Below are positions 488 through 33,213 of a stretch of 42,476 nucleotides of DNA, in pieces. This DNA is from Escherichia phage forsur, in sequence record MN850617.1; one strand, written 5' to 3'. The notes under the pieces were generated by a model that was not told where the DNA came from, did no database searches, and saw only the letters and a list, made by a program, of their open reading frames with translations. Numbering within the stretch: the stretch's first letter is position 1; each line of letters starts with the position of its first letter. The position numbers were made by a program, and so were the translations under genes.

Positions 488-708
488 GTAGAACCCTGTA
501 CCAAGAAGATGTGGTGCAGCTCAAAGATGACGGCCTCTCGATAGACTGGGAGGCCAACACGCAGGTCGAGCTGTACAAAGATGGCACCGTCTGTATCTCG
601 CAGGAAGGGGAGCAGGTGTGGGTGCCGTGGGCATATGTCAAAGATATTATCTTCGCTCTTGAGGAAGCACACGATGCACATGAAAGACACCGTAGTAGTA
701 GACCTTGA
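484..708 (+). CDS. hypothetical small acidic protein (GTG start overlapping upstream stop as GTGA)
   Basis: 74-codon ORF from the six-frame track; start codon overlaps the stop of the phosphoesterase gene. Overlaps the next gene by ~35 nt. No recognisable motif. Confidence 0.35.
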   Translation: MSRTLYQEDVVQLKDDGLSIDWEANTQVELYKDGTVCISQEGEQVWVPWAYVKDIIFALEEAHDAHERHRSSRP

Positions 709-1890: not shown

Positions 1891-2124
1891 ATGAGCAGAT
1901 ACCAACGAGCCATTGAGGATACCGTGGTCGAGAAAGGTGTGTGCGGGGAGTGCCACGGCTGTGGCACATTCACCAGCATGACCATTCGACACGAGCTTGT
2001 CCAAACTGAATGTGAAGCCTGTGGTGGCACAGGCGTGACTGACCCGGCACTGCAACGTTCAGTGCTGCGGGAACAAGGTATGCGCTGCCAAGTGCAGCCG
2101 GGCTATGACCAACCAACGGAGTAA
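1891..2124 (+). CDS. small zinc-finger protein (CxxC...CxxC)
   Basis: ATG 1891 preceded by AGGAG; product contains CGECHGCG and CEACGG Cys pairs. Confidence 0.6.
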   Translation: MSRYQRAIEDTVVEKGVCGECHGCGTFTSMTIRHELVQTECEACGGTGVTDPALQRSVLREQGMRCQVQPGYDQPTE

Positions 2125-4559
2125 TGATGGACTTACTTGCTGAGCAGATTCGACTGGAAGAAGAAGCGCGAGCCAGACACCGCGAGGGCTGGCTGGATAA
2201 TATCAGAGAGGCGTTGGCCGCTGGCCGGGCTGGTTCAGTACCATTGCTCCAGCGTATGATGGTTGAGGCGTATCCTCAAGTTGAAGCTGCGATGCAAGAA
2301 CTCCTGAATGAAACTGCCCGTGGCTATGGTGCGCAGTACCGGACATACATGCGGGAGCTGGGGCCGCGAGCTTGTGCCTCACTCGCGTTGAGCATGGCTG
2401 TGTCCGGTGCCGCTGCTGAGCAAGCAGTGCTTAACTTGCTCAAGGACATGGGCAAGGCTCTCATGGCTGAGGTGGTGTACCTTCGGGCCAAGGCTGCCGG
2501 GCCTGTGCAGGCTGCGTACATGGCCAAGGTTAAGACTGACGTTAAGCGCTCTCGTTCCAAGTCAGCTAACCATGTGTATAACAAGGCGAAAGCGTCGGCG
2601 TCTAACGTTGGCGTTGAGCTGGATATCCTGCCACAGCGTGCGCTCATCACCATTGGTAAGATGATGATGAAGTGCATCGAGCCTACTGGTCTGCTGGTCA
2701 CTATGCGTGTCGGCGGCAACCACCGTCAGCGCGGCACCGCGCACTTCGCACTGCATGAAGATGTGCTGGCAACGATGAAAGATTGGATGGACTTGCCACG
2801 GGCAGACGGCCTGTGCTGTCCTCCAATGATTATCCCGCCAGCGCAGATTGCACGCGATGGTCGTAGTGGTATGTGGCACTCGCCGGGGCAGGCTGCCATG
2901 TACCGGGCAATCAGCCGCATGAACCACCGTGGCTACCGTGCGCTGGGTGTTGACCCACTGCCCATCATAGAGCCGTGTATGATGCTCAGCAGCGTTCCGT
3001 ACCGAGTTAACCCAATGGTATTGGAGTTCCTGAGAACGAACCGTACAGGCGTTATGGGGCTGCCTGTGCCGCCTCGTGAGCCTAAGCTCCCGTTCACCAT
3101 CCCGGCTGGTGTCAGCTTCGCTCAGTACATTAGCAAGTTCCCACCAGAAATGCAGCAGCAGATGGAGTCGGAAGCCCACGAGTACAAGGTGAAGACCCGT
3201 CTGTATTACAACGAGCTGCGCAAGTTCACGTCACAAATGCTGGCGCTGAACGGTGCAGTCAAAGAGGCCGAGCGCTATGCGCCATACGATAGGGTATATC
3301 TCCCGACTTACGCCGATACGCGGGGCCGAATTTATTATTCTTCGACCCTTAACCCTCAGTCCATCGACGCGGTGCGAGCGCTGCTCGAACTTGCTGAACC
3401 AGTGGCTCTCGGAGACGAGGGGCTGTTCTGGCTCAAGGTACATGTTGCGAATTGTTTTGGATACGACGCCACCGACTTCGACGACCGGGCGGCGTGGACG
3501 GACAAAACACTCCCCCGACTACGTGAGGCGTGCCGTCTTCCAGAGGCATTTGATTCGTTCTGGTCAGAAGCCGATAGCCCTATCTCAGCGTGGGCTGCTG
3601 CTGTTGAACTCATTCGAGCTATCGACTCAGGAAGTCCTGAGACTTATCCCTGCCGAGTGGTTACGCAGTGGGACGCTACATGTTCAGGACTCCAGCACCT
3701 CAGTGCGATGCTACGCGATGAGGTTGGAGGTGCTGCTGTCAATCTTGTCGATAGCGTGGGAAGAAAAGCAGACATATATCTTAAGACGGCAGCAGCGGCG
3801 ATGCAGGCTCTTGAAGAAAGTGAAGCGGCTGCGCCGACGACAATGGGTTCGTGGCTTGTTTCCATCGGCATTGTTCGGGCTATGGCCAAGAAGCCAGTGA
3901 TGACCTACGTGTACGGGGCAACCCGGCACGGCATGGTTGACTACTACTGCCTGTATCTGCGTGAGAACCGGGTCAAGCTGCCGGAGGGTAAGAGCCTGCT
4001 GGAGTGTGCTCAGTTCATTGCTGAGTTTATGTGGGCTGCTATCCCCCGCGTCGTGCCGAAAGCTGCCGAGCTGATGGCATGGTTGCAGGCTATCGCAGTA
4101 GAGGCTGCGAGCATGGGTGAGTACGTGGAGTTCACTGCGCCGTCCGGTCTTCGTGTGGTCAATCTGTATCAGGCCAGCAAAGAGATTGCGCTGAACAACA
4201 TCAACCTCATGGGTATCCACGGCATCAAGCTGCGCGAGTATCTGGATAAGCCAGATGGTCGCAAGTGTGCCGCTGCGATTGCTCCGAATTTTGTACACGC
4301 CATGGATGCCAGTCACATGATGAAGGTTCTGTGGGAGATGTGGAATAACGGGGTATACATGGTATCCATCCACGACTCGTTCGGTGTAGCGGCAGCCCAT
4401 GCTGGGTTACTGCACAAGGTCATCCGTGAAAAGTTTGTGCAGATGTATGAGGAATGTGACCCTATTCAGCAACTTGCGTCAGCATATAACCGTGAAGCTC
4501 CAGCTCGCGGTAATCTGGACATCCAGCTTGTGAAGAAATCAAGCAAGTTCTTCTGCTGA
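2124..4559 (+). CDS. single-subunit DNA-dependent RNA polymerase (T7-like)
   Basis: 811-aa ORF; contains QWDATCSGLQHLSAM (cf. T7 RNAP motif A DGSCSGIQHF) and VSIHDSFGV (cf. T7 motif C IHDSFG). Position immediately upstream of the structural module. Confidence 0.95.
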   Translation: MMDLLAEQIRLEEEARARHREGWLDNIREALAAGRAGSVPLLQRMMVEAYPQVEAAMQELLNETARGYGAQYRTYMRELGPRACASLALSMAVSGAAAEQAVLNLLKDMGKALMAEVVYLRAKAAGPVQAAYMAKVKTDVKRSRSKSANHVYNKAKASASNVGVELDILPQRALITIGKMMMKCIEPTGLLVTMRVGGNHRQRGTAHFALHEDVLATMKDWMDLPRADGLCCPPMIIPPAQIARDGRSGMWHSPGQAAMYRAISRMNHRGYRALGVDPLPIIEPCMMLSSVPYRVNPMVLEFLRTNRTGVMGLPVPPREPKLPFTIPAGVSFAQYISKFPPEMQQQMESEAHEYKVKTRLYYNELRKFTSQMLALNGAVKEAERYAPYDRVYLPTYADTRGRIYYSSTLNPQSIDAVRALLELAEPVALGDEGLFWLKVHVANCFGYDATDFDDRAAWTDKTLPRLREACRLPEAFDSFWSEADSPISAWAAAVELIRAIDSGSPETYPCRVVTQWDATCSGLQHLSAMLRDEVGGAAVNLVDSVGRKADIYLKTAAAAMQALEESEAAAPTTMGSWLVSIGIVRAMAKKPVMTYVYGATRHGMVDYYCLYLRENRVKLPEGKSLLECAQFIAEFMWAAIPRVVPKAAELMAWLQAIAVEAASMGEYVEFTAPSGLRVVNLYQASKEIALNNINLMGIHGIKLREYLDKPDGRKCAAAIAPNFVHAMDASHMMKVLWEMWNNGVYMVSIHDSFGVAAAHAGLLHKVIREKFVQMYEECDPIQQLASAYNREAPARGNLDIQLVKKSSKFFC

Positions 4560-4586
4560 ATAAAGCATTGTATTCCTTGCTTATTT

Positions 4587-4609
4587 ATGAAAGTGACTAT
4601 AGTGATAGA
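4587..4609 (+). promoter_or_regulatory. candidate phage RNAP promoter (T7/SP6-class core ACTATAG), putative +1 G at 4602
   Basis: ATGAAAGTGACTATAGTGATAG; the ACTATAG heptamer matches the -6..+1 core shared by T7 and SP6 promoters. Lies in the intergenic gap just after the RNAP gene. Exact inverted copy at 26463..26485; 14-mer direct copy at 4854..4867. Confidence 0.5.
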
Positions 4610-4666
4610 ATCACGCTACCGGTAGCCCCGTCAGTGGCGGGGGTGCTGCCACTCAGAGAGGATTGT

Positions 4667-4852
4667 ATGGGTAAAGAATCTCCATTAGATAGAGTAACAT
4701 TCACTAAAGCTCAGATAGCTCTACTGGAAAAGCACTTCGGTACATGGGTACAGGTAGGCAGAACAGTAACACCTGACACTAACCTACCACTGATTAACAG
4801 AGAAGCTGGTAAGCAGGATGTACTGGACTTCATCCGTGAAAGAGTGATTTGA
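4667..4852 (+). CDS. hypothetical protein (61 aa)
   Basis: ATG 4667 preceded by GAGAGG; the ORF track starts it earlier at 4568 but that start lacks an RBS and covers the promoter-like element. Confidence 0.5.
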   Translation: MGKESPLDRVTFTKAQIALLEKHFGTWVQVGRTVTPDTNLPLINREAGKQDVLDFIRERVI

Positions 4853-4853
4853 A

Positions 4854-5273
4854 ATGAAAGTGACTATTATGGGAAATACAACGCACACGACTATGCCTCT
4901 TGACATTCGGCGTGCGGTGGCCGAGGGCATACAAGCCGAGCGGCCATGGTCAGACCTATCTCCCGATGTGATAGTCGAACGCATGTACGAGGCCACTGCC
5001 GCTGGTTGCGTTGACGTTTACATTACTGCCGACGACGATGGCCTCATGGCTGTTGCTCACATCGGCAGGTTATTCGATATTCATGTGGGCGAGATGGTGG
5101 TCATTATGGCCTCATACGTCTGGCCCCAGTACAGAAACCGTGGAGTGATGCGTGCCATCCTCCGTGTACTCAAAGACGTGGCCCGTTCCGAGGGTGTACG
5201 TTGGTGCGGTTACTCCCACATGGTGCGGCCTTACGTTCAGGAGTACCGCTTCATAGATTTGGAGAAACCGTAA
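4854..5273 (+). CDS. hypothetical protein (139 aa; alternative start 4869)
   Basis: ORF in track; first 14 nt are a copy of the promoter-like 14-mer ATGAAAGTGACTAT, so the true start may be the in-frame ATG at 4869. Confidence 0.6.
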   Translation: MKVTIMGNTTHTTMPLDIRRAVAEGIQAERPWSDLSPDVIVERMYEATAAGCVDVYITADDDGLMAVAHIGRLFDIHVGEMVVIMASYVWPQYRNRGVMRAILRVLKDVARSEGVRWCGYSHMVRPYVQEYRFIDLEKP

Positions 5274-5533
5274 TGGGTAGCGTAGGTAAAGTTTTCAAGG
5301 GGATTGGCTCGGTCTTTGGACTAGGTAGCCAGAAACCCCAGTACACGATTAAGACTGACCCGAATCAGGTCAAGGCTGAAACCTTGAATGCAAACTTGCA
5401 GGCTGATTTGGCGAACGATAACACCCCGACGATTCAGGCAGGTGGTCAGGTTACTTCGGCCTCCGACACTTTATCGAGCCGACGCCGCCGCACCGGAACG
5501 GGTGTAGCAAGCAACCTCGGCATCGGGAGTTAA
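5273..5533 (+). CDS. hypothetical small protein upstream of portal gene
   Basis: ATG 5273 overlaps upstream stop (TAATG) and follows GGAGAAACC; 86 aa, Gly/Ser-rich. Confidence 0.55.
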   Translation: MGSVGKVFKGIGSVFGLGSQKPQYTIKTDPNQVKAETLNANLQADLANDNTPTIQAGGQVTSASDTLSSRRRRTGTGVASNLGIGS

Positions 5534-5536
5534 CGA

Positions 5537-7102
5537 ATGGCATACGACGCGCAGAACGTCAGCTATGAATCGCTCTGGCAAAAGTACCGGGACAGTAACG
5601 TAGTCACCAAGGCTCGTGAGTACAGTCGTTACACGTTGGCCAAGCTGGTCAGTGAATACGACCGCGCCGAGGTAGACGACATGAACCGCCAGCAGATTAC
5701 TCGTGACTACCAATCTGTCGGCGCTCTGCTCGTTAACAACCTCGTCGCTCGACTGGGTGAGTTCCTGTTCCCGGCATCAGCCCGGTTCGTAAAGCTGAAA
5801 CTCGATAAGGTGTCTGACCAACAGCGGCAGCAAATGTCCAAGGTCAATCAGGCACTCATCACTATTGAAAAGGGCATCGTAGACAAAGCCAAAGAGAACG
5901 GCGGCTACGCTGACCTGTTAATGACCATTGCCCAACAAGCAGTCACTGGTAACGCCGCGCTGTACCGCGATATGGAAACTGGAACGTACCGAGTGTACGG
6001 GCTGGAATCCTTCGTGGTGCAGCGCGACGGTCGTGGCGTTGTTACGGACGCCGTGGTCAAAGAACGCATCCAGTGGGATTCCCTCGACAAAGCGTTTCAG
6101 GACATGCTGAACGCCAAGGGCTTCCGCTGTGGTGGTAACAAACGTGTGTGGCTGTACACTCGCGTCCTCCGGGTTAGGAAGGACAGTGGGCTGTATGGCT
6201 ATGAAGTAACGCAGCAGGTGGGCAACTACCAAGGCTGTGTCTACACCCCCGGTAAAGATTACTACCCTGAAAAAGTCTGCCCTTGGATTTTCCCAGTGTG
6301 GTCTTTGAAGTCTGGCGAGCATTATGGTCGCGGGATTGTCGAAGACCACGCTGGGGATTTCGCACGTCTGTCGATGCTGTCTGAGCACTCTGCTCTGTAC
6401 ATGCAAGAGGCGCTGCGTGTCCTGTGGATGCTGACTGGTTCTGGCGGCAACGTCGATGACATTGAATCCGCGCAGACTGGGCAGGTCGTACCTCTCCAGA
6501 ATGGCACCACGCTGTCTGGTCTTGAGGTCGGGGATTACCAGAAAGTTCAACAGGCCCGTGACGAAATTAACCAGATTGTGCAGCGACTCGCGCAGGCGTT
6601 CATGTACACTGGTGAGTTCCGTGACTCGGAGCGTACCACCGCAACCGAAGTGCAGCAGGTAGCAACCAGCGCCGAACGTGGGCTGGGTGGCCCGTACTCA
6701 ATGCAGGCAAAGACCCTCCAGATTCCTCTGGCATACGTCTTGCTCGCAGAGATTGACGAGTCCTCCGTACCTGACATTGTGGGCGATATCCTGACGCTTC
6801 AAGTTGAAGCTGGTCTGGATGCCCTCGGTCGCAGCATCGAAGCTGAGACGCTGATTCGTGCGCTCTCTGATTCGCAGGCAGCAATGGTTGCTGTCCAAAA
6901 CATTAACGGCGTTGCCAACGTCATTGACCCTCAGAAGGTCATTGAGGTTATCTTCGCTTCCAACGGCGTCGCGCTTGATGACTATCGTAAGTCAGCGCAA
7001 GACCTCGCAAATGAAGGTCAGCAAATCGACAGAGCAGCAGCCGCTGCCGCAGGCGTACAGCCGGGCGCAGTCGATGTAGCGCCGAACGTCGCTCAGATTT
7101 AA
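5537..7102 (+). CDS. portal (head-tail connector) protein
   Basis: 521 aa; segments FVVQRDGRGVV, KVCPWIFPV...GEHYGRGIVED and LGGPYSMQAKTLQIPLAYVLL parallel recalled T7 gp8 segments (YVVQRDAFGNVL, EACPYIPIR...GESYGRSYIEE, LGGVYSILSQELQLPLVRVLL). Confidence 0.9.
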   Translation: MAYDAQNVSYESLWQKYRDSNVVTKAREYSRYTLAKLVSEYDRAEVDDMNRQQITRDYQSVGALLVNNLVARLGEFLFPASARFVKLKLDKVSDQQRQQMSKVNQALITIEKGIVDKAKENGGYADLLMTIAQQAVTGNAALYRDMETGTYRVYGLESFVVQRDGRGVVTDAVVKERIQWDSLDKAFQDMLNAKGFRCGGNKRVWLYTRVLRVRKDSGLYGYEVTQQVGNYQGCVYTPGKDYYPEKVCPWIFPVWSLKSGEHYGRGIVEDHAGDFARLSMLSEHSALYMQEALRVLWMLTGSGGNVDDIESAQTGQVVPLQNGTTLSGLEVGDYQKVQQARDEINQIVQRLAQAFMYTGEFRDSERTTATEVQQVATSAERGLGGPYSMQAKTLQIPLAYVLLAEIDESSVPDIVGDILTLQVEAGLDALGRSIEAETLIRALSDSQAAMVAVQNINGVANVIDPQKVIEVIFASNGVALDDYRKSAQDLANEGQQIDRAAAAAAGVQPGAVDVAPNVAQI

Positions 7103-7114
7103 TTTGGAGATTAC

Positions 7115-8347
7115 ATGTCTGGTGAATACCAACCTACTGCCGCACCCGCTCCCCAAAACGTACCCGCTGGCCCGACCTATTCTCCCTCTGGTCACGGCGG
7201 TAATGATTATGGTGGAAGCCCACAGGTGGTACAGAACCCAGCGCTCGGACGCTTAGGCACGCCGATTGAACTGCCGCGAGGTGGTGCAACTCCGCAGCCG
7301 CAACAGCCGTTCGGTCAACAGCCGGGCCTGATTCCAAATCAGGAGTACAACCCGTATGCCCAACCGCAGCAGGGAAACCCAAGCCCTTACGCACCCGTAC
7401 CTCAGCAGAACCCGTATGGTGCTCCGCAACCGCAAAGCCCGTTTGCGGCACCACCTATTCCGATTAATGGGTATCCGCAACAGGGCTACACGCCTCCGGG
7501 CCAAGCGGCTCCGGCACAGCAGCCGGGCTTAGCACCGAACAACCCTGCGTATGGCTTCAACCCGTATGGGCAGCAGCCTCAGCAGCAGCAGCCGCAACAG
7601 CAGGCACCTCAGCAGCCGCAGCAGCCTTTCCAGCAGTTGCAGCCGCAGCCGGGCCAGCCGCCTCAGCAGTTCCAGAATCCGAACCTAACGGCAGAGAATC
7701 TGGCAAAGCAGGAAGGTGGACTGACCGCTGACCAAGTGGCTCAGATTTTCCCGGATGAAACCAGTCGTGCTGTGTTCCAAGGTATGGACACCATCGCCCG
7801 TGGCCAGAACATCGACCTGCTTGCAGCGTTCGGTTCTGCATACGAGCGTCGTGACCCTACTCTGGTGAATGAGCGCTATCTGGCGCAGTTCGACCCACAG
7901 ACTGTATCCATCCTCAAAGGTCAATTCGGCGCACTGGTTGCCGCTGGTCAGCAGCGCGATGCTGCAATCGAACAGCAGGTTTACCAGATGGCTGGTGGCC
8001 AAGAGCGTTGGGGTCTGGCAGTGCAGGCATTCAATACCGCTGCCGACAAAGGCACGATTGATGCTGTAGTAGCGGCTGTGAACTCCGGCGACCCTAATCA
8101 GGTACGTCTGGCAGTGAACACCATTCTCCAGTTTGCTGGTTCCCAAGGGAATATGATTCAGCGTTCTGGACAAAGTTTGACGCCTAATGGTGGCGGTCAA
8201 GCACCTCGTGACGTTATGACTAACGAGGCATTCCGTCAGCATCTTGGCTGGCTTGAGCAGGCGCATCCTGTTGGTTCCCCGGAATACAACAAGCATTACG
8301 CCGTACTGGTAGAGCAGCGCCGTCAGGCCAAAGCTCAAGGTTACTAA
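7115..8347 (+). CDS. scaffolding protein with long N-terminal Pro/Gln-rich low-complexity region
   Basis: Sits between portal and capsid genes; C-terminal part (AGGQERWGLAVQAF...) resembles recalled T7 gp9 (AGGRERFDALYNHL). The N-terminal ~180 aa are P/Q/N/Y-rich repeats. Confidence 0.8.
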   Translation: MSGEYQPTAAPAPQNVPAGPTYSPSGHGGNDYGGSPQVVQNPALGRLGTPIELPRGGATPQPQQPFGQQPGLIPNQEYNPYAQPQQGNPSPYAPVPQQNPYGAPQPQSPFAAPPIPINGYPQQGYTPPGQAAPAQQPGLAPNNPAYGFNPYGQQPQQQQPQQQAPQQPQQPFQQLQPQPGQPPQQFQNPNLTAENLAKQEGGLTADQVAQIFPDETSRAVFQGMDTIARGQNIDLLAAFGSAYERRDPTLVNERYLAQFDPQTVSILKGQFGALVAAGQQRDAAIEQQVYQMAGGQERWGLAVQAFNTAADKGTIDAVVAAVNSGDPNQVRLAVNTILQFAGSQGNMIQRSGQSLTPNGGGQAPRDVMTNEAFRQHLGWLEQAHPVGSPEYNKHYAVLVEQRRQAKAQGY

Positions 8348-8368
8348 TTTCTTTCGTAAGGATTTCCC

Positions 8369-9361
8369 ATGGCCGACAACTACTATCAGCCGAATCAGTT
8401 CCGTCCACACTGGGGTGGTGCGAACTCTGATAACGACATTCACCTTGAGGTGTATGACCGTGATGTGCAGACCCAGTTCATCTACAACTCCATCTTCCGC
8501 AGCGGCCTGACCAACTTCAAGTCTGTTGCGAACCAGTCCAACACTTGGCGTGGCGACCGTCTCGGCTCCGTGTCTGTGAAGGGCCGTAAGTCTGGTCAGT
8601 CTCTGGACAACCAGCCAGTTCGCTCTGAGAAGCTGATTGTCACTGTGGATACCGTGTCTTACATCCGTATCCCGATTGACTATCAGGACGACTGGACTGC
8701 GCCGGACTTCCGTGCTGAGCTGACCCGTAACATGGGTACTGCACAGGCGAAAGCGTTCGACCAAGCGCACGTCATCCAGCTCCAGAAGTCTGCTGACTTC
8801 GTTCCTCCGACCTCTCTGGCAGGCGCGTTCAACTCCGGTATCAAGGAGAAAGTAACGCTGACTGGCACCGTGGCTTCTGAGGAAGACGATGCAAGCGCAC
8901 TGGTGCATGGTCACAAGAAAGTCATTGAGGCGTTCATTCGCCGCGACGCCGACCTTGGCCGTCTGGTAACGCTGATTGACCCGGCGTGGTTCAGCATCCT
9001 GCTGGAGCACAAGAAACTGATGAACGTTGAGTTCACTGGTGGTCGTGGTGTGAACGACTTCGCTATGCGTCGTGTTGCTTACGTGAACGGTATCCGTATC
9101 ATCGAGAGCAACGCATTCCCGCAGGCAGCAATCACCAACCACATCCTCGGTGCCGACTTCAACGTCACCGCCGAAGAAATCAAGCGTAAGATGATTATCT
9201 TCGACCCGTCTCTGGCTCTGGTCACTGTCGAAGCCCAACCGCTATTCAACCGCGTGTGGGATGACGAACGTGAACTGACCAACGTTCTGGACAGCTTCCA
9301 CATGTACACCGTGGGTCAGCGTCGTCCTGACGTGGTAGGCGTGGTTACTACCGAAGCCTAA
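8369..9361 (+). CDS. major capsid protein
   Basis: 330-aa ORF in the conserved position after the scaffold gene, followed by a hairpin terminator as in T7-like phages; RBS AAGGA upstream. Confidence 0.85.
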   Translation: MADNYYQPNQFRPHWGGANSDNDIHLEVYDRDVQTQFIYNSIFRSGLTNFKSVANQSNTWRGDRLGSVSVKGRKSGQSLDNQPVRSEKLIVTVDTVSYIRIPIDYQDDWTAPDFRAELTRNMGTAQAKAFDQAHVIQLQKSADFVPPTSLAGAFNSGIKEKVTLTGTVASEEDDASALVHGHKKVIEAFIRRDADLGRLVTLIDPAWFSILLEHKKLMNVEFTGGRGVNDFAMRRVAYVNGIRIIESNAFPQAAITNHILGADFNVTAEEIKRKMIIFDPSLALVTVEAQPLFNRVWDDERELTNVLDSFHMYTVGQRRPDVVGVVTTEA

Positions 9362-9371
9362 TGGTAAACTC

Positions 9372-9394
9372 GAAGCCCTTCATTGAGGGGCTTC
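9372..9394 (+). terminator. hairpin downstream of capsid gene (terminator candidate)
   Basis: GAAGCCC-TTCATTGAG-GGGCTTC, a perfect 7-bp stem followed by TATGATTAT; position is analogous to the T7 terminator after gene 10. Confidence 0.5.
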
Positions 9395-9427
9395 TATGAT
9401 TATCGTTACTCACCCAAAGGAGGGTGC

Positions 9428-9616
9428 ATGAAAGTCATTGTTGCTGATAACGCTGGTGTTTCCTACCACATACCTGAGAGTCACATCTTCTGCTACTACG
9501 CAGATGCCACTGACCCTACGAAGACCACCGTTGTCCACGCAGCGAACGGCACGCAAATCTACAAGAGCACCTTCGACGGTACGCCTGCGGATTTGGATGC
9601 CATACTTACCAGTTAA
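9428..9616 (+). CDS. hypothetical protein (62 aa)
   Basis: ATG 9428 preceded by AAAGGAGGG; lies between capsid and tail tubular A genes. Confidence 0.5.
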   Translation: MKVIVADNAGVSYHIPESHIFCYYADATDPTKTTVVHAANGTQIYKSTFDGTPADLDAILTS

Positions 9617-9628
9617 TGGAGACATGCT

Positions 9629-10177
9629 GTGACTCTACTCGAAGCAGTTAACATTGTTCTTCGGGCATTGTCTGAGCACACCGTATCATCCACAGAGATT
9701 CGTAACCCGTCCGTCACGCTTGCCCTTGACAAGATTAACGTGGCGACGGAGGAAGTTCTCACTGATGGCTGGTGGTTCAACAATATCCGAATCACCATTC
9801 CACGCGAGTCGGATGGTCGAGTCAAATATCCCGCAGACGCACTGAGCTTCATCCCCGATGGGTTTGAGTGTATTGTGCGAGGCGGGTATCTTTACAACGC
9901 GCAATCCCAAACCTTTGTTTTTACTGAGGATGTTCCGGGATTGGTTACTTATGATTTGGGGTGGGATGACCTACCGAGTCCTGTTCAACGACTCATTGCA
10001 TATCAAGCAGCTATCTCAGCTTACGCCGACGACATTGGGGATAACCCTCCGGCCAGCGTGACAGGCGGCTATGCCATGGCGTTGCAGCAGTGCCAGTCAA
10101 TCCATACCCGTCAACGTCGATTCAATGCACGCCAGCGTCAGAGCTGGTGGCGATATGAGAGTGCTCGGAGAGGATAA
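9629..10177 (+). CDS. tail tubular protein A
   Basis: 182 aa, GTG start; N-terminus VNIVLRALSEHTVSS...DKINVATEEVLTDGWWFN parallels recalled T7 gp11 (VNDILASIGEPPVS...NKINRQIQSRGWTFN). Confidence 0.85.
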   Translation: MTLLEAVNIVLRALSEHTVSSTEIRNPSVTLALDKINVATEEVLTDGWWFNNIRITIPRESDGRVKYPADALSFIPDGFECIVRGGYLYNAQSQTFVFTEDVPGLVTYDLGWDDLPSPVQRLIAYQAAISAYADDIGDNPPASVTGGYAMALQQCQSIHTRQRRFNARQRQSWWRYESARRG

Positions 10178-12621
10178 TGCCAGTATACCAAGGCGCTTAT
10201 AAATCCATCCTCGGCGGCGTGAGCCAGCAGGTCTATACTGACCGCCAGCTATCGCAGGTTGAGGAACAGGTCAATATGACCTCTGACACCGTGCGTGGCC
10301 TGCGTAAACGCCCCGGCACCCGCGACACTAAACTGGTGGACTCCACCAACGCCAGTGTCTGGAGCCTTGGTAACTTTGGCCACCTGCGCTTTTACACAAC
10401 CAACCTCGGATGGGGTGTCACTACCTTCGTGGTCAATACGCTGACCGGGTACGTCACCTCATTCGTTGAGACTGAGACTGTCCAATTCATGGGGCAGTCC
10501 AACTACCTGATTACCTCCAACCCTGACGACATTGTATTCACGACCGTGGGCAACACGATGTATGTGGCCAACTGTTCTAAGCTGCCTGTTTTGCTTGAGA
10601 ACGAAACGCGAATGAATCCGGGTCGCCGGGGTTACTTTTTCGTTTTGGCTGGTGCCTATGGCAAGCAGTACACTGTTCGCATCGAGACGAGCGGCGGCGC
10701 ATACAGTGCCACGTACACTACACCGGATGGTACAGACCCCGGTGACTCTACACAAGCCACACCAGAGTACATCATTGGTCAGTTGAAGACTCAGCTCGAT
10801 ACTGCCATCGGAGGCGCTACCGGGCTTGAGGTTGTGCAGACGGACGGGGCGTACATGTACCTCCAGACGACTGCCGCTTACACTGACCTGAACGTGTCCA
10901 CGAACACTGGCTCAACGTATGCCATCGCATCAAACACTCACAGGGTTGACCTGACCACCAAGCTCCCGGCACGCCTGCCGACTCAGGCTGGTGGCTTCAT
11001 CATGACCGTGGGTGATGACAGCTTTGCGCAATACTTCCAGTGGGATTACGCCAACTCGCGCTGGGTGGAGAAGGGTGCCTACGGCTCACCGACCGGGATT
11101 AACCCCAGTGGTATGCCGCTGGTATTCAACACGACCAGCACGCTCAATCAGCACTCGTTCGCTCAAGGCTCTTGGCCGGGGCGTACTGCTGGCGATGACA
11201 AGACCAACGCCATTCCTGCATTCACCGACGCCAATGGCGTGGGTATCACTGGGCTGGCATCGTTCCAAGGTCGCCTGATTATCTTCTCTGGCCCGTACAT
11301 CACCATGGGTTCCAGCGACAAGGATGACCGGACTAACTTCTTCCGCACCACTGTGACCCAGTTGCTGGAGAGTGACCGCATTGAGTTCACCGCGTCGAGC
11401 TTCGCTGGCGCATCGTTCCGGTATGGCATCCCGTTCAACTCTGACCTGATTCTGGCCAGTGAAGAACATCAGGCCGTCATCCCCGGACGTAACCAGATTC
11501 TGTCACCGAGCAACGCCACGGCTGTGCTCACCTCGACGTACCAGATGGACACTGGCGTAGCGCCGACCACCTCTGGCCGCAGCCTGTATTATTCGTACCC
11601 GCGTTCGAACAGCTCGTTCTCCATCAAGGAGATGCTGCCGTCCGGCTACACGGATTTGCAGTACGTGAGTCAGGACGTGACCGACCACCTGCCGACCTAT
11701 CTGGAAGGGGCTAACAGCTACATCTCTGCCAGCACCACGAACAACATCGTCGTGTTTGGCTCGACCACTGAGCGCTCGACACTGTACGTGAACGAGTACC
11801 TCTGGTCAGGGGATGAGAAGGTAATGTCCTCGTGGCATCGCTGGGAGCTGTACGGCACTATCCACGCAGCGTGGTTCGTCCGTGAGGTTCTGGTGGCGCT
11901 GGTTGAGCAGAATGGCCACATGCACATGCTCACGCTGTCTATGCGTGATTCACCAGACCCGACTGACCCAGCACGATTCCTGCCTGCGATGGACTATGCG
12001 CAGAACATGACCGTGACCAACCCAAGCACTGATAGCTCGTACATCCAGTTCGCTGCCGATGGCGTGCAGAAAGCGCTGTGGGATATTATTCAGGCCCGGT
12101 ATCTGGCCGATGGCAACACTGACTTCATGACCACGGTTGTGCCGTCCGGCGACTACATTGGTGCCGAGGTCGGTATCAAGTCAGTGGATACCACGAACCG
12201 CCGTCTGTACCTGCAACCATCTTATGGCTCCACAACTCTGTGGGTTGGCCTGCGCTTCACAGCACTGTTCAGTCCGACGCCGCCGCGCATCTTCAATGGT
12301 GACGGCTCGTACATGGACGTGAACAAGATGGTCGTGATGTTCTACAACTTCACCCTGCGGTACACCAGCCTGTTCAATATCACGGCGACTGACCGGGGAG
12401 CATACGACGCCTACAACATTGAGTCCAGCCCGATTCGTTACACCAGTAAGGAACTCGGATTGGAATCTGCAATGCTGGCGAAACGTGCGCACCTGAAAGT
12501 TCGCATGGGCCTTGAGGTCGAATCCAGCAGCATGGTCGTTGATTCGTCTACGGCTGGCGACCTGAATATTCAGGGGCTGGGTTATTACGTCAAGTTCTAC
12601 AATCGCACTCGGAGAATTTAA
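10177..12621 (+). CDS. tail tubular protein B
   Basis: 814 aa; N-terminus KSILGGVSQQ...GLRKRP parallels recalled T7 gp12 (KNLKGGISQQ...GLQKRP); conserved position. Confidence 0.9.
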   Translation: MPVYQGAYKSILGGVSQQVYTDRQLSQVEEQVNMTSDTVRGLRKRPGTRDTKLVDSTNASVWSLGNFGHLRFYTTNLGWGVTTFVVNTLTGYVTSFVETETVQFMGQSNYLITSNPDDIVFTTVGNTMYVANCSKLPVLLENETRMNPGRRGYFFVLAGAYGKQYTVRIETSGGAYSATYTTPDGTDPGDSTQATPEYIIGQLKTQLDTAIGGATGLEVVQTDGAYMYLQTTAAYTDLNVSTNTGSTYAIASNTHRVDLTTKLPARLPTQAGGFIMTVGDDSFAQYFQWDYANSRWVEKGAYGSPTGINPSGMPLVFNTTSTLNQHSFAQGSWPGRTAGDDKTNAIPAFTDANGVGITGLASFQGRLIIFSGPYITMGSSDKDDRTNFFRTTVTQLLESDRIEFTASSFAGASFRYGIPFNSDLILASEEHQAVIPGRNQILSPSNATAVLTSTYQMDTGVAPTTSGRSLYYSYPRSNSSFSIKEMLPSGYTDLQYVSQDVTDHLPTYLEGANSYISASTTNNIVVFGSTTERSTLYVNEYLWSGDEKVMSSWHRWELYGTIHAAWFVREVLVALVEQNGHMHMLTLSMRDSPDPTDPARFLPAMDYAQNMTVTNPSTDSSYIQFAADGVQKALWDIIQARYLADGNTDFMTTVVPSGDYIGAEVGIKSVDTTNRRLYLQPSYGSTTLWVGLRFTALFSPTPPRIFNGDGSYMDVNKMVVMFYNFTLRYTSLFNITATDRGAYDAYNIESSPIRYTSKELGLESAMLAKRAHLKVRMGLEVESSSMVVDSSTAGDLNIQGLGYYVKFYNRTRRI

Positions 12622-13360: not shown

Positions 13361-16057
13361 ATGCCAATTATGCGTGACCAGCGTGGCGCAAATCTCAACG
13401 CTGCGCAACAGGGCGTACCGAATGTGCAGCAGGCTCAGACTCCGTTTAGTCTCGCAGGCCGCGATACTCGCATCGACACGTTCCCTACTGAGTCCATCCA
13501 GCGCGTACTCAACATGGCCAGTCAGTTGGCTGGCCGTGTCACTGAGCGTGCTAACGAGGAAGAATATCTCAAAGGTGCCAACGCCGCCGCGAGCGGTAAG
13601 GCTGTTGAGGATTTGGATTCGAACTGGCTGACTGCACAGTTCCAGAAAGCTGGTTATAACGACCAATTCAAGCGTATGCAGATGGCTGGCGTAGCCTCTG
13701 AAATCTCGGCCAACATGACCGAGTACGCTAAAATGTCTCCGCAAGACTTCCTGAAAGTCATTGATGAGAAGACTACCGGGCTGTTCGACAATACCGATGG
13801 TATGACCCTTCGCGGTCGCCAGTCGCTGCTGGAGAACCAGCTCACGTTCAGCAACACCCTGATTCGCACGCAGGCTGCGCAGCACGGTAAGTATCTGGTT
13901 GAGCAGCGTGCAGCAATGTACAACTCTCAGGGTAACACTCTGGTTACTCTGGCGGCTCAGGCCAAAGCATCCGGCGACGGCGGTGCGTATGCAAACGCCA
14001 CGGCTGCTACCATGGCTTGGGCTAAGTCCATTCTGGCCGATGACAAGCTGCCGCTGGAAACCCGGCGCACGCAGGTCACGTCCATGATGGGCCTGATGCT
14101 TTCGCAGGATTTGCGTACCCCGGTCGAGACGGCGGTTAACTCCGGCCTGTTCAACGACCTGCCTGCTGAGGACTTGGCCAAGCTGCAAGGTCAGATTCGT
14201 GAATCCAAATCTCGTACCGAGGTTCAGGATAACATGGGTCTGCTGGAGGCAAAGGGTCAGCTTGATGCTCGTCAGGCTGTGTTTGGTGACGTTACGCCGG
14301 GCCAGTACGGTCAGGTGCTCCAGCAGTTGGTGGACAACAAGCTCATCACTGCTTCCGGGTACAGCTCTGCTATCGAGTCCTTCTACAAGGATTACGCCAA
14401 GCAAGCCAAGGCCAGCCAGCTCGGTCAGGCATATGCCACCGGGAACCAGACGTACATGCTCCAGCAGGGCGCGAGTGAGCAGGATGGTGCTGACGCATTC
14501 ATCAAAGCTCGCATGAAGCAGCCGGGCGCTACGGCCAGTTCTGTGGCATTCGACCTGCTGCAAGTTGGCGCACAGACTGGCTTCCCATCTGCGTACAAAT
14601 CCGCAGCCAAACTGATTGAGCCATCCCTGTCGAACTTCGGCACCGTGGATGAGATGAACCCGGATGCTGCCCGTACTGTCACTGGTCTGATTGACCGTGT
14701 GACTGTGGCAGAAAATCAGGGTGACAAGACCGCATGGACTAAACTCCTGTCCGGTCTGTCTGAGGAAAACCAAGAGAAGATGGTGTACATGCGCGAGCAG
14801 ATTAAAGCTGGCCGCACCATCGACCAAGCTGGTCAGGGTTACATCAAGCAGCAGCAGGACTACGCTGGCTTGACCCCTGCTCAGAAATCCCAAATCTTAA
14901 CACAGCGTCAATCTGACGTGAACAGTGTAGTCAACTCACTTGAGTCCCAAGGCTTCTTATCTCGCACTTGGCAGGGCTTAGCTGGTCTGTTCTCAGACAC
15001 TCAGCAGAACCTGTTCCAAGCTCGCGTCGCATCTGGTGACATTACTGCTGCTCAGGAAATGTCGGAGGTGTCTGCCGCGTACCGCGAAGAACTGCAAGCC
15101 GTGGTGCTCAAGAACCCGAACATCACGAAAGACGGTATGGAAGCGCTTGCGTCTGCGAAGCTGGCCAACCGCGTGCTGCGCGTCGGGGAGACTACGTTCA
15201 GTCCCGGCTCTGTGCTTATCGCTCCGAGAAACCAAACTGTTCAGTCTATGCTTGGCCTGCCTGCTGACGTGGCACCTGACCGTATCGGTCGCGCCATCGC
15301 CTCACTTGACCAGAGCAAGGCACCAGAAGGTTTCGAATCGTCGTACTCGTTTATGCCCGATGGCTCACTGAACGTTCAGTTCTTCAACAAGACGGGTGAC
15401 GTTTCCCCGAACAGCTACCGGATTACGCCGCAGGCTATTCAGGAACGTATCCGTGAAGACGACCGTGCAGCCGCCACCGCAAATAACGAAGTCTACGGTG
15501 ATGGGAAACTCTTTGTCGATAAGTCCAGCAACATCGGGATTCGTGTCAATGGCGTGAATACTGCCGGGGTTGATGAGCAGCGTATGCTCTATGCCCGTGG
15601 TAAGCTGATTGAGTTCGAAGGTATCCGCAACACCACGTATCGTGACAGCACTGGCGTCCAGACCAACGGCATCGGTATCTCTGACCGCAGCCCGTACTTC
15701 TCTGAGGGTCAGGCTTCTGGTATGCGCGGTGGTACTGAATGGTCGCCTCGTACAATTCACGACACGTTCGTCAATCACACCAACATGGTAGCCCGGCAGA
15801 TGCCCGGTACTGCGGCAGCGCTGGGGTGGAGTCGTGACAACGACGCCCAGTTCCAGTTCATGATGCAGATTGGTTATCAGGCTGGCGCAAGCTGGTATCG
15901 CAACGAGGGTGCGTACAGCAAGCTGGCTGATGCTATCCGTGTTGGCGACCGTGACAAGGCTGTTCAGGCTCTGGCTGCGACTCCGGCTTACAAGCTGTCG
16001 CAGGATGAGCGCAAGCAGTATTACGTCCAAACTCTACTCGCAGGTATGCAGGAATGA
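13361..16057 (+). CDS. internal virion protein (gp15-like position)
   Basis: 898 aa; call is by position and size. Confidence 0.7.
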   Translation: MPIMRDQRGANLNAAQQGVPNVQQAQTPFSLAGRDTRIDTFPTESIQRVLNMASQLAGRVTERANEEEYLKGANAAASGKAVEDLDSNWLTAQFQKAGYNDQFKRMQMAGVASEISANMTEYAKMSPQDFLKVIDEKTTGLFDNTDGMTLRGRQSLLENQLTFSNTLIRTQAAQHGKYLVEQRAAMYNSQGNTLVTLAAQAKASGDGGAYANATAATMAWAKSILADDKLPLETRRTQVTSMMGLMLSQDLRTPVETAVNSGLFNDLPAEDLAKLQGQIRESKSRTEVQDNMGLLEAKGQLDARQAVFGDVTPGQYGQVLQQLVDNKLITASGYSSAIESFYKDYAKQAKASQLGQAYATGNQTYMLQQGASEQDGADAFIKARMKQPGATASSVAFDLLQVGAQTGFPSAYKSAAKLIEPSLSNFGTVDEMNPDAARTVTGLIDRVTVAENQGDKTAWTKLLSGLSEENQEKMVYMREQIKAGRTIDQAGQGYIKQQQDYAGLTPAQKSQILTQRQSDVNSVVNSLESQGFLSRTWQGLAGLFSDTQQNLFQARVASGDITAAQEMSEVSAAYREELQAVVLKNPNITKDGMEALASAKLANRVLRVGETTFSPGSVLIAPRNQTVQSMLGLPADVAPDRIGRAIASLDQSKAPEGFESSYSFMPDGSLNVQFFNKTGDVSPNSYRITPQAIQERIREDDRAAATANNEVYGDGKLFVDKSSNIGIRVNGVNTAGVDEQRMLYARGKLIEFEGIRNTTYRDSTGVQTNGIGISDRSPYFSEGQASGMRGGTEWSPRTIHDTFVNHTNMVARQMPGTAAALGWSRDNDAQFQFMMQIGYQAGASWYRNEGAYSKLADAIRVGDRDKAVQALAATPAYKLSQDERKQYYVQTLLAGMQE

Positions 16058-19000
16058 TTACACAAGAATCGCTCGACAAGTTCATGGCTCCCAAGCAGGG
16101 GGCCAACGCCCCTACGCTGGTGATTCCAGCTCCCGTAAAAGCTGAGACGCTCAGCACTCCACTGCAAGACGCCACTCGTCAGGGTGCCGTTGAGCAGTTT
16201 GATAAGATGCAGGAACTGGAAGCGACACCAATCGCCACGGCTTTGAGCGCTTCTGTGAAGAACTGGGATACCACTCAGCTCTTTGATGCGGCACTCAACA
16301 AGCCTGTGTTTCAGGCTGACCCGAACTTCCACCCGAACGAGGCATTGCAGAATGTCCAGTTCCCGGTGACTGAGGATGACCGCACATTCCTGTTCAAGTC
16401 CAAATCAATGGACGAGTTCAACTGGCGTACACAGCAGCTCCAAGAGATGCGCGAACGTACCCAGTTGGCTCACACTGCGCCAGTGATGAACGCAGTGCTG
16501 CAATTCGCTGACCCGCTGTACCTCGCCACTGACCTGCTCTCGATGGGAGCAGGCACTGCCCTGAAACTTGGTCGCCTCGGAACCGCCGCTGTCGGTGCAG
16601 CTTCAACTGCTGCCACTATGACAGCGGTGGGTAACGAAGCACGCCCAGTGTCTCAGAACGAGATTATCTTTGCGGCTGCCCTGCACGGGGCGGCCACCAC
16701 TGCATTCTATCGCCCCGCCGCTGCGCCAGCCCGTCGCCTTGATGAGCTGTCGCCGGAGGAATTTGCGGCAGAGATGCAGCGCCGTAACGGTATTGACCCG
16801 AACAACCCTCCGCAGTTCGACCCGAACAATGCCATGTCTCCGCTGGCAATGTCACTGGGCTTCGGGCGTCGCGGTGCCATGGAGACTGACGAGGTTCCTG
16901 AATCCATCCGGGCTGCGGCTCAGCGTGGACTCGACCTCGCTCGCCGTGGTGAGCAGACCAACCCTAAGCGTCCATTCCTTGAGTGGTCACTGTTCAAGTC
17001 GTTCAGTCAGCATTCTGACGAAGCCAGTGCTCTGGCCGGGCGTCTGCTGGATGACCCGCTGAATCCGAACATGACCTCTGCTGCTGCAATCCAGCGCGAG
17101 ACTCAGGCTCGCTTCGGTGTGCTGCTGAACCAGTATGAAGACACCCTGCGTAACGCCCTGACCACTGATGGCTGGAGTAACCTCCGGCGCTTCCGTGACC
17201 CGGTAGGCTATCGCCGGGCGCAGCAGGAGTTCGAGGCTGCTGTTCGTCTTGAGCTGGACAAGCGCATGATTGACAACAACTTCCGTGGCGCTAACCCGAA
17301 TGTGGCCGCTGCCGCCGACCGACTGGGCGAATACTCTCGCGCCGTGGGCCGGGAGCTGGAACGCAAGGGGATGGTTGAGCCGGGCTTCGTGGAGAAGAAC
17401 CCGTACTACTACCCTCGCCGGATGAACGTGACCAAGATTGAGCAGGCTGAGCAGTTGCTCGGTAAGAAGCCATTCATGAAGCAGATGACGACTGCTGTGC
17501 AGCGCGGCATCGGTACTGACCGACCGACTGCCAACGTCATTGCCCATGCCATGGTAGAGCGTGCTCGCCGTAAGGGTTACGGTATTGACAACTCCGGTAT
17601 GATTATCAACAAGGAGGGCCGCGATGAGCTGCTCGAAATCATTGAGAACTCGAAAGGACTCGACGAGGCTGCCAAGGCCCGTGCTTCCGCACTCCTTCGT
17701 GAATCTGGCTCGGACGCTGGCCGACCGTCGATGCTCAAGAGTCGTATCAACATCGACATGATGCACCAGCTCGGCCCTAACTTGCAGGTGCGTGACCTAT
17801 TCGACGACAGCATCACCAGCATGATGGATGCGTACAACCGCCGCATTACCGGGCGACTGGCTCTGCATGAAGCTGGACTGGGTACTGACGCCGAACGCGC
17901 TGCTGCTCGTGAGGCTCTGGCCAAATCCATCAAGGATGGTACGGCTCGTCGTCAGGCGCTGGAGCAGTATGACAACATCATGGCTTATTATCAGGGTGCT
18001 CCGGTCGGTGAGGAAATGCCGCAGTTCATGCGCCAGCTCTCAGCACTGACTCAGGCTACTGGTCTGGCTGCATCCGGTCTGTGGCAGTTGGTGGAATACG
18101 GCACGATGATGCAACGTTTTGGGGCGGTCAATACATTTCGCGCCATGATGCGCACAATCCCGGAAGCACGCGCATTATTTAAGCAGATGAGAGTGACTAC
18201 TAAGGAAGGTCGTCAGTTGGCCTTGGATGCTGAGGAAGCTCTGACTGCTGCGGTGGCGAGCGATATTCGTATGCGTCCAATCATGCAGCACTATGACGAC
18301 ATGTTCTCTGCTGACAAGTCACCGTGGGTTATGCGTCTTGAGCACGCCCGTGACGCCACGATGTTCATCAACATGCAGAAATACATCCACTTCCACCAGA
18401 CTCGAACCAACGCAGCTCTCGTGATGCAGACGCTGCGCAAGGCAGCAGAAGGTGATGCCAAGGCTATTGCCGCGATGAAAACCTATGGTGCCAATGATGC
18501 GCTGCTGGCTGATATCCGTAAGCAGGTTGCCAAGTCCGGCACCAAGCCGGATGCGTGGGATGAGGGTGTGTTCAACCGTACCCGCATCGTCATGATTAAC
18601 GCCATGGATGACGCTATTGTTCGCGCCCGTGTGGGCGAGCTGCCTGCATTCGCAGAGTTCAGTACCCTCGGTAAGTTCCTGTTTACGTTCCGTCGATTCG
18701 TCGCGGCTACGCACAACAAGACTCTGGTTGGTACTTGGAATCGTGAGGGTGCCCGTGGCATGGCTACGCTCATGGCGTACCAGTATCCGCTGGCGATGAT
18801 GGCCACCGCTGCCAACAACGTGATTTCCGGTAAAGCATTCTCTGACCCGGAAACCATGGCACCTAACAAGCTGGCTAGTCAAGCGCTGAATTACCTTGGT
18901 GCTATCGGCTTTGCCTCTGAGTTCACTGGTGTCCTGACTGGTCAGCAGCGTAGCTTCGGTGCGCCGGGGCTGCTGTTCCTTGACCGCGCTTATGGTGTGG

Positions 19001-19161
19001 CGGGTGCAGCTACCAGCGCTGCTGGCGGCGTGCTGACTGGCGATACCGAGCAGGCAGTGTCCGGCGCTCGTAAAGCGGCAGGTAACATCATCCAAGCTAT
19101 CCCACTCATCTCAATCGTGCCGGGCGTCCGAGCACTCAACGAAGCAGTTAAGGGTGAATAA
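16054..19161 (+). CDS. internal virion / ejection protein (gp16-like position)
   Basis: 1035 aa, start overlaps upstream stop (ATGA); call is by position and size; no lysozyme motif recognised. Confidence 0.7.
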   Translation: MITQESLDKFMAPKQGANAPTLVIPAPVKAETLSTPLQDATRQGAVEQFDKMQELEATPIATALSASVKNWDTTQLFDAALNKPVFQADPNFHPNEALQNVQFPVTEDDRTFLFKSKSMDEFNWRTQQLQEMRERTQLAHTAPVMNAVLQFADPLYLATDLLSMGAGTALKLGRLGTAAVGAASTAATMTAVGNEARPVSQNEIIFAAALHGAATTAFYRPAAAPARRLDELSPEEFAAEMQRRNGIDPNNPPQFDPNNAMSPLAMSLGFGRRGAMETDEVPESIRAAAQRGLDLARRGEQTNPKRPFLEWSLFKSFSQHSDEASALAGRLLDDPLNPNMTSAAAIQRETQARFGVLLNQYEDTLRNALTTDGWSNLRRFRDPVGYRRAQQEFEAAVRLELDKRMIDNNFRGANPNVAAAADRLGEYSRAVGRELERKGMVEPGFVEKNPYYYPRRMNVTKIEQAEQLLGKKPFMKQMTTAVQRGIGTDRPTANVIAHAMVERARRKGYGIDNSGMIINKEGRDELLEIIENSKGLDEAAKARASALLRESGSDAGRPSMLKSRINIDMMHQLGPNLQVRDLFDDSITSMMDAYNRRITGRLALHEAGLGTDAERAAAREALAKSIKDGTARRQALEQYDNIMAYYQGAPVGEEMPQFMRQLSALTQATGLAASGLWQLVEYGTMMQRFGAVNTFRAMMRTIPEARALFKQMRVTTKEGRQLALDAEEALTAAVASDIRMRPIMQHYDDMFSADKSPWVMRLEHARDATMFINMQKYIHFHQTRTNAALVMQTLRKAAEGDAKAIAAMKTYGANDALLADIRKQVAKSGTKPDAWDEGVFNRTRIVMINAMDDAIVRARVGELPAFAEFSTLGKFLFTFRRFVAATHNKTLVGTWNREGARGMATLMAYQYPLAMMATAANNVISGKAFSDPETMAPNKLASQALNYLGAIGFASEFTGVLTGQQRSFGAPGLLFLDRAYGVAGAATSAAGGVLTGDTEQAVSGARKAAGNIIQAIPLISIVPGVRALNEAVKGE

Positions 19162-25871: not shown

Positions 25872-26039
25872 GGGCATCTGAAAGCTGACACATTGAACAG
25901 GCCGTGGGTGCAATACCCCGGCTTGAAAATTGAACGTTTATGCGTGGGCCTCCCTCGACCCGAATGACCGCGCGTACCCCCATGACGTGTGCGCGGATTA
26001 GCCTCGCGACGTGCGCGATATTGCTCGCGTGCGCTGCGC

Positions 26040-26450
26040 GGCGCGTCAAGAGGATTGCCTGCGTGCGGTATAGCTCGTGCGTGTCGCGTTTCATCGTCTG
26101 CCGTGTGGCGTGCTGTGCGCTGTCCTGCTGGCTGTGCTGTGCGGTGCTGTCCTATGGGGACGCTCTGCGCTGGCTGTGCTGTGCTGCGTGCTGCGCTCGG
26201 TCGGGCGGGTATCTGTCTCTTTTGCCGTGGTACGCTCTGCGCCGTGGTGGTGCTGTGTGGTGGTGGTGCTGCCGTGGTGCTGTCCTGTCTGCTGGTCTAC
26301 TGTCTGCGCCGCCAGCTCTGCGCGTCATGCTCTGCTACCTGCTGCTACTGTCCTACTGCGTTCACTGGCTGCCGCCTGTCATCCTGTCGGATTCCATCCG
26401 TTGCCGTTCCGCGCTCGCTTGTTTCGGCTGCGCCGCGCTCGCTCTGCGTA
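26040..26450. repeat. A-depleted (C/G/T only on + strand) low-complexity block with degenerate GCTG/CTGTG/GGTG repeats; candidate terminal-repeat region
   Basis: Adenine is nearly absent on the + strand over ~400 bp, so no + frame contains a stop; non-coding position between the last late gene and the early promoters. Confidence 0.6.
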
Positions 26451-26462
26451 TCTAGCGATACA

Positions 26463-26485
26463 TATCACTATAGTCACTTTCATAA
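26463..26485 (-). promoter_or_regulatory. inverted exact copy of the T7-class promoter-like element at 4585..4607 (would fire leftward into the A-depleted block)
   Basis: + strand TATCACTATAGTCACTTTCATAA is the reverse complement of 4585..4607 (23/23). Confidence 0.4.
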
Positions 26486-32988: not shown

Positions 32989-33213
32989 GCTCACCGTAAC
33001 CAAATCACCCACCGGATTATTCTGGTGGGTAGTTGATAAGCTGCAACCAAATAAACCTTTGGCTGTGCGTGATACAAAGTGGGAAGCCGAGAGTAAACTC
33101 GAAGACCTTCAACGTATTATGCGGAATGTTATTCCAGCTTAGCCATCTACTCATGCCAGTTATTATTTAGCTGGCATTATGAAGGTGACTATATTGGACA
33201 ACCCGGAGGAAAT

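Follow-up and report, generated by a model that had tools for sequence, protein, structure and literature searches.

Putative cognate promoters of the phage RNA polymerase in Escherichia phage forsur vary together with the polymerase specificity loop among Bonnellvirus genomes

The stretch of DNA analyzed here, referred to as the window, spans 42,476 nucleotides of Escherichia phage forsur (MN850617.1) and is a complete Bonnellvirus genome in rotated form, in which the long ORFs all reside on the plus strand. An 811-aa ORF at 2124..4559 (+) matches T7 RNA polymerase structures (phmmer, E = 5e-57), aligning with T7 over its C-terminal part only, and its orthologs in relatives carry the annotation RNA polymerase. 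The genome thus encodes a phage single-subunit RNA polymerase (RNAP), of phiKMV-type organisation, and this enzyme is the proposed reader of the motif described below. Its gene closes the DNA-metabolism genes and immediately precedes the structural genes, which is a phiKMV-type arrangement, and is followed by a gap of 108 nt with the next gene starting at 4668. In this gap, 28 nt past the RNAP stop codon, begins a site that we term P1 (ATGAAAGTGACTATAGTG, 4587..4604, +), an exact copy of an 18-mer that is conserved in variant form at the orthologous site of relatives. The original prediction had pointed to this place as a promoter of the T7/SP6 class. The string it was based on, ATGAAAGTGACTATAGTGATAG, is indeed found at 4587-4608, and the heptamer ACTATAG (4596..4602, +), with its G at 4602, is located inside P1, is identical to the -6..+1 core of T7 and SP6 promoters and is not conserved in the motif. 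In the region around P1, the window shares 98.3% identity with Escherichia phage glasur and 77-91% with 16 further records, all from the Autographiviridae genus Bonnellvirus. Our comparisons covered nine complete relatives, Lidtsur, LIMEzero and three IMG/VR loci. A search of the whole window against Rfam returned no known RNA families.

Several further features reside next to P1. An inverted repeat, GTGAT-AGA-ATCAC, is found at 4602-4614, at the presumed start of the P1 transcript, and relatives contain GTGATATGTATCAC as their version of it. ROV85, RZ4, megetsur and altidsur have a second copy of TAGTGATATGTATCA, located some 40 bp ahead of P1; in ROV85 (L006) the inverted repeat is situated at about 2477-2490 and the upstream copy at about 2437-2451. 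A G+C-rich hairpin (GGTAGCCCCGTCAGTGGCGGGGGTGCTGCC, 4620..4648, +) forms a local stem in the fold of the 5' leader predicted for the P1 transcript. It is conserved in the motif groups A, B and D, which are defined below, and absent from J8-65 and Lidtsur. Its interpretation as an intrinsic terminator was rejected on account of the missing U-tract, the position downstream of the promoter and a z-score of only -0.78 for the whole leader.

The P1 sequence is repeated in the genome. With up to one mismatch the 18-mer ATGAAAGTGACTATNNTG occurs four times in the window, three of them on the plus strand (4587, 4854, 33179) and one on the minus strand (26483-26466), and not once in 100 shuffles. The shorter string ATGAAAGTGACTAT has exact copies at 4587 (+), 4854 (+) and 26483-26470 (-) and a copy with a single mismatch at 33179 (+); in each of the four, two free bases and then TG follow. 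These four copies, together with a fifth, covarying copy at 18187, constitute the repetition expected of phage-RNAP promoters. The non-random unit is the 18-mer and not the heptamer. ACTATAG is present at two loci, giving four hits as the core is palindromic, against about two expected; 16 of 100 shuffles equal this number, which is chance level. The remaining three sites of the window read ACTATTA, ACTATAT and ACTACTA in its place.

The second copy, P2 (ATGAAAGTGACTATTATG, 4854..4871, +), resides 267 bp downstream of P1 and overlaps the start codon of a 139-aa gene (4854-5273). In Lidtsur this gene bears the annotation GNAT-family N-acetyltransferase, and the GNAT-annotated gp28 is located at the corresponding place in LUZ19. 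P5 (ATGAGAGTGACTACTAAG, 18187..18204, +), a weaker copy, lies within the gene for a 1035-aa internal virion protein (16054-19161). P4 (ATGAAGGTGACTATATTG, 33179..33196, +) is situated ahead of the DNA-metabolism genes and is followed by a Shine-Dalgarno sequence and an ATG at 33215. P3, an exact copy on the minus strand (26466..26483), has the terminal-repeat region on one side and the early host-type promoters on the other and points leftward to the genome end. P1 and P4 are intergenic and co-oriented; P2 lies over a start codon, P5 is intragenic and P3 antisense, exceptions to a placement ahead of co-oriented gene modules that LUZ19 displays too. Directly before P4, TGCCAG and CTGGCA enclose an 11-nt loop in a hairpin at 33154-33176. 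J8-65 features a hairpin of other sequence and the same shape before its P4 (GTGGCAT...ATGCCAC), and the LIMEzero equivalent is annotated as a terminator. This suggests that an early terminator is immediately followed by a middle promoter at 33154-33196. A further hit at 9428 was not counted among the sites; it falls on the ordinary start of a gene, and a search of the relatives did not recover its flank.

The surroundings of P3 deserve a closer description. Position and orientation of this site are the same in all ten Bonnellvirus genomes and in LIMEzero; in J8-65 it is located at 531-548 (-) (L004), about 290 bp to the right of the annotated repeat (1-259). P1 and P3 agree in sequence as far as about motif position 22. 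Right of P3, three tandem host-type early promoters (TTGACA, 17 nt, TGTAAT) reside at 26727-26755, 26864-26892 and 26945-26973 (+), three matches where 0.13 are expected. A simple sigma-70 scan misses all three because the second hexamer has a G at position 2. The segment that separates the leftward-pointing P3 from the rightward host promoters (26484-26720) is very A/T-rich, includes two direct copies of CAGTAACTTA, at 26500 and 26580, and is a candidate replication origin. On the other side of P3, the sequence from about 25955-26142 onward is homologous to the first approximately 190 bp of the annotated 259-bp direct terminal repeat of J8-65. This homology places the physical genome end probably about 85 bp past the endolysin gene, and as judged from the sequence the physical ends are probably situated near 25,950-26,500 of the rotated window. 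The G+C-rich stretch from the genome end to P3 bears conflicting ORF annotations, on the minus strand in glasur (glasur_55) and on the plus strand in Kc261 and ROV85, and is probably non-coding. We rejected glasur_55 as a minus-strand gene downstream of P3, as the window, which is 98% identical, lacks an equivalent ORF and the P3 frame stops after 34 codons.

Each of the ten Bonnellvirus genomes, the window included, carries its own variant of the motif at all four orthologous sites, with GTGAC, GCTAC, GTGTC or GTAAC..G as the distinguishing sequence, and an exact copy of another group's variant was found in none of the ten. Group A (GTGACTAT; ATGAAAGTGACTAT) is made up of the window, glasur, ROV85 and RZ4, group B (GCTACTAT; ATGAAAGCTACTAT) of Kc261 and usur, group C (GTAACTGT; ATGAAAGTAACTGT) of J8-65 and smaasur and group D (GTGTCTAT; ATGAAAGTGTCTAT) of megetsur and altidsur. 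When 44 sites are aligned, the conserved block comprises exactly positions 1-18 and the flanks are unconserved. Within the block, positions 1-4, 7, 11, 12 and 18 are invariant, while positions 8, 9, 10 and 13 are uniform within genomes (0.97-1.0) and differ between them. Such concerted change at dispersed sites is expected if one trans-acting reader recognises all of them. The changes extend into proteins. Codons 3-5 of the P2 gene shift non-synonymously with the motif of the respective genome (MKVTI, MKATT, MKVST, MKVTV). P5 also covaries at the expense of amino acid identity, with MRVTTK in group A, MRATTK in group B, MRVSTK in group D and MRASTK in LIMEzero, and is degenerate in group C (J8-65, smaasur). 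Read from these alignments, a DNA-level constraint shapes two unrelated proteins via P2 and P5 (V/A and T/S at codons 3-4). A further look-alike at 17422 with three mismatches keeps GTGAC in all groups, hence does not covary, and was discarded as a chance resemblance.

The variation of the motif has its counterpart in the polymerase. RNAP residues 686-705 (KEIALNNINLMGIHGIKLRE, 4179..4238, +) align with the T7 specificity loop (phmmer), pairing N692 with R746, N694 with N748, K702 with R756 and R704 with Q758 of T7 in a part of the alignment that is of moderate confidence. The loop reads EIALNNINLMGIHG in group A, ESPM-HLHLMGVHQ in group B, ETTM-GIKLMGVHA in group C and ETMLNNINLMGIHS in group D. 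This segment differs exactly by promoter group, and its flanks are nearly invariant. Between the window and Kc261 the loop is the most divergent 20-aa stretch of the whole RNAP, with 9 of 20 residues exchanged as compared to about 10% overall. LIMEzero combines the motif WTRAAGGCAAKCACTAWG with the loop ETSM-RLNLLGVHAIQLRE, locus L018 the motif ATGAACATCCGTACTA with the loop EMRVGLNLMGVHRVQIQE, locus L020 the motif ATGAARACTACTAT with the loop DTIMKLQLMGIHGIKVRE, and Lidtsur a motif close to that of group C, ATGAAAGTA(A/T)CTG, with the loop EAAMGLNLMGVHGIKIRE. The four Bonnellvirus groups, Lidtsur, LIMEzero, L018 and L020 thus each possess a loop of their own, as covariation with the polymerase demands. 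The motif groups are at the same time phylogenetic lineages, such that the covariation is partly confounded with descent, a confounding that the mosaic genome of usur lessens and does not remove.

The backbone of usur is 97-99% identical to the window nearly throughout. Its RNAP gene region, in contrast, shares 80-87% identity with the window and 95-98% with Kc261 (18501-21000 of the reverse-complemented usur record, L008, against 2287-4790 of the window). All five usur sites bear the Kc261-type (B) motif and have been converted by very short patches. Of the informative positions in the 300 bp on each side of P4, usur shares 120 with the window and 14 with Kc261, and three of these 14 fall within the motif. 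B-type sites on a window-type backbone imply that the promoters follow the polymerase allele and not the backbone, and it follows that the motif copies are very probably cognate promoters of the phage RNAP.

Taking repetition, concerted change and loop covariation together, we consider it highly probable that 4587-4604 is a cognate promoter of the phage single-subunit RNAP and one of five copies in the genome. The promoter assignment of the original prediction is very probably correct, and the arguments for it are the genome-specific repeat, the covariation with the loop, the polymerase swap in usur and the positions of the LUZ19 and KP34 promoters; judged by sequence comparison, P1 is very probably a real phage-RNAP promoter and an expected element of this phage group. 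One point that speaks against promoters is the location of two sites in coding sequence and of one in antisense orientation, which is unusual for T7 and not for LUZ19. By analogy with T7-type polymerases, the A/T-rich invariant 5' part of the motif, ATGAAAG, would be held by the N-terminal domain of the RNAP. The specificity loop would read positions 8-10 and 13, melting would take place in the A/T-rich stretch of positions 14-17, and transcription would begin with the invariant G of position 18, located at 4604. After the polymerase has built up, P1 and P2 would activate the late structural genes, with P1 probably serving as the main late promoter. P4 would drive the DNA-metabolism genes, P5 may boost the distal late genes and P3 would send antisense transcripts leftward over the terminal repeat.

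The choice of G4604 (position 18) as +1 is derived from conservation; we favour it with modest confidence and an uncertainty of about 2 nt. It is preferred as this G is invariant, as the block then extends from -17 to +1 as in T7 and SP6, as the group-specific positions come to lie at -10, -9, -8 and -5 and as the 3' pattern resembles that of LUZ19. In T7, positions -10 to -8 are within the zone read by the specificity loop. Two observations argue against a start at position 18: at two sites of Lidtsur a 1-nt insertion shifts the G to position 19, and a start at position 16 places GTGAT-AGA-ATCAC exactly at the RNA 5' end at P1 and P3. This second point is shared by an alternative along the lines of the original prediction, in which the heptamer ACTATAG is the essential core of the promoter and transcription begins at G4602. 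The heptamer does equal the T7/SP6 -6..+1 sequence at P1 and P3, and the inverted repeat at 4602-4614 would then open the RNA. Position 16 is, on the other hand, the least conserved of the block, with G in 47% of the 44 sites (A at P2 and P5, T at P4), whereas position 18 is G in 44 of 44. The heptamer occupies two of the five window sites and is lost at P1 of J8-65 (ACTGTTC) and in LIMEzero. A +1 at 4602 would furthermore shift the group-specific positions to -8, -7, -6 and -3 and the beginning of the block to -15, while +1 at 4604 yields -10, -9, -8, -5 and -17, which is the layout of T7. We regard initiation at G4602 from a T7/SP6-type core as unlikely. The resemblance of P1 to the T7/SP6 core is largely coincidental, and the original prediction was very probably right in calling a promoter and probably wrong in its T7-core argument and its start base.

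Recognition of the motif by another phage protein, be it a replication initiator, a terminase or an enzyme that introduces a site-specific nick of the sort reported for phiKMV-type phages, is an alternative of a quite different kind. The binding protein cannot be named from sequence alone, P3 adjoins the A/T-rich, repeat-bearing region near the genome end, nick sites have been proposed as an alternative for a KP34 motif (PMC4411677), and usur contains one other Kc261-like patch, at the primase/helicase junction. The variant nevertheless tracks the allele of the RNAP loop, even in usur where nearly all other genes are of window type, and the mapped RNAP promoters of LUZ19 match the positions of the sites one for one, so that we deem a different reader highly improbable. 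Least probable of all, with hardly any chance of being correct, are a host sigma-70 promoter, for which TTGCTT, 15 nt, TATAGT can be read at P1 but the spacer is too short, a scan of 4000-10500 gave no candidates and the concerted changes at positions 8-10 would fall in the spacer, and the start of a short conserved peptide (MKVTI...), in line with the ATG that opens every copy and the annotated start codon at P2 but contradicted by the absence of Shine-Dalgarno sequences before P1, P3 and P4, by frames ending after 12-34 codons and by the antisense and intragenic locations of P3 and P5.

If the sites are promoters of the phage RNAP, Bonnellvirus and Waewaevirus may contain at least seven mutually selective pairs of RNAP and promoter, switched by a few residues of the loop (N692, N694, G700 and 688-690). 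After recombinational exchange of the polymerase allele as in usur, all five promoters would be rewritten, including the two coding sites where the promoter would dictate amino acids. We see an even chance that this scenario holds. The closely related RNAP/promoter variants are candidates for orthogonal expression pairs and may serve as a route to the specificity code of phiKMV-type polymerases. Promoters are not mentioned in two published descriptions of Bonnellvirus phages (one of them PMC7552041), and the main text of a 2025 genome-mining study (PMC11880802) does not name these phages. The sites described here supply a predicted transcription map for Bonnellvirus, which those descriptions lack.

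Among known systems, the closest is the Pantoea phage LIMEzero (FR751545, Waewaevirus), whose RNAP is 70% identical to that of the window. The LIMEzero record contains a 'putative phage specific promoter' at the P1 ortholog directly after the RNAP gene (20330-20349) and another putative phage-specific promoter at the P4 ortholog (7294-7313), after a terminator and before the primase gene. Two of five sites are thus annotated, both as predictions only. Copies are also found, unannotated, at the positions of P2, P3 and P5, with the P3 equivalent at about 637-654 (-) (L013). The LIMEzero motif has the same length and register as that of the window, with the final G at position 18. The central eight bases differ (GCAAGCAC versus GTGACTAT) and so does the RNAP loop. 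With these annotations, and with experimentally mapped promoters in LUZ19 and KP34, the original view that a promoter of this sort stands out as notable in this phage type is outdated.

T7 (TAATACGACTCACTATAG) and SP6 (ATTTAGGTGACACTATAG) promoters have the same length up to +1 as the window motif, 17 nt plus G, and like it they begin with an A/T-rich segment and have their specificity region around -12 to -8. With position 18 set as +1, 12 of the 18 bases of P1 agree with SP6, among them GTGAC at -11 to -7. P1 and P3 contain ACTATAG; the core common to T7 and SP6, CACTATAG, is unconserved among the window sites, and measured from the invariant G it is displaced by 2 nt. The strong promoter of phage KP34, T(A/G)ATGTTACAGGAGTA, resides right behind the RNAP gene and has been established by in vitro transcription and 5'-RACE (PMC6834552). 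It is short, with 16 nt upstream of the G start, and one of only four promoters in the genome (PMC6834552). Its sequence is different from that of the window motif, and KP34 additionally uses an unrelated weak promoter class, of which we saw no sign in the window.

The most instructive comparison is that with LUZ19 (Phikmvvirus), in which phage promoters of the sequence 5'-GgtTATGTCACacACAnnGG-3' have been mapped by ONT-cappable-seq, four in number: a pair behind the RNAP gene, a single one in the structural part of the genome and an antisense one in the early region (PMC10914365). The pattern is conserved in 15 Phikmvvirus species (PMC10914365). When we scanned the LUZ19 genome with the published motif, copies were located at 21118, 21315 and 35593, the latter in gp37, whose product is the internal virion protein with an endolysin domain, and at 748 on the minus strand. 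These four sites correspond one for one to P1, P2, P5 and P3 of the window, while P4 has no LUZ19 counterpart. Paired promoters follow the RNAP gene in both phages, the second 200-300 bp further on (4587/4854 in the window, 21118/21315 in LUZ19), and both have one in the internal virion protein gene (18187 in ORF 16054-19161, and 35593). An antisense promoter is situated between the left repeat and the host promoters in the window (26483-26466), in J8-65 (548, -) and in LUZ19 (748, -), where it lies at about 733-748 (-, L021), between the terminal repeat (1-472) and the sigma-70 promoters. The two motifs have a similar 3' architecture, consisting of two free bases, G/T and G, and both genomes contain few promoters. 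The RNAPs are only about 32% identical and the core motif sequences are unrelated; similarity of the window motif to the LUZ19 or KP34 motif beyond the 3' pattern was not found. The LUZ19 promoters are supported by experiment, and the sites in the window are sequence-based predictions. From Bonnellvirus to LUZ19, the left genome end retains an antisense copy of the phage promoter, for which a role in replication origin function or packaging is conceivable; the authors of the LUZ19 study proposed that it may block read-through into the early genes (PMC10914365). The four-site layout of the Pseudomonas phage LUZ19 extends, with its left-end antisense promoter included, to a distant enterobacterial lineage.
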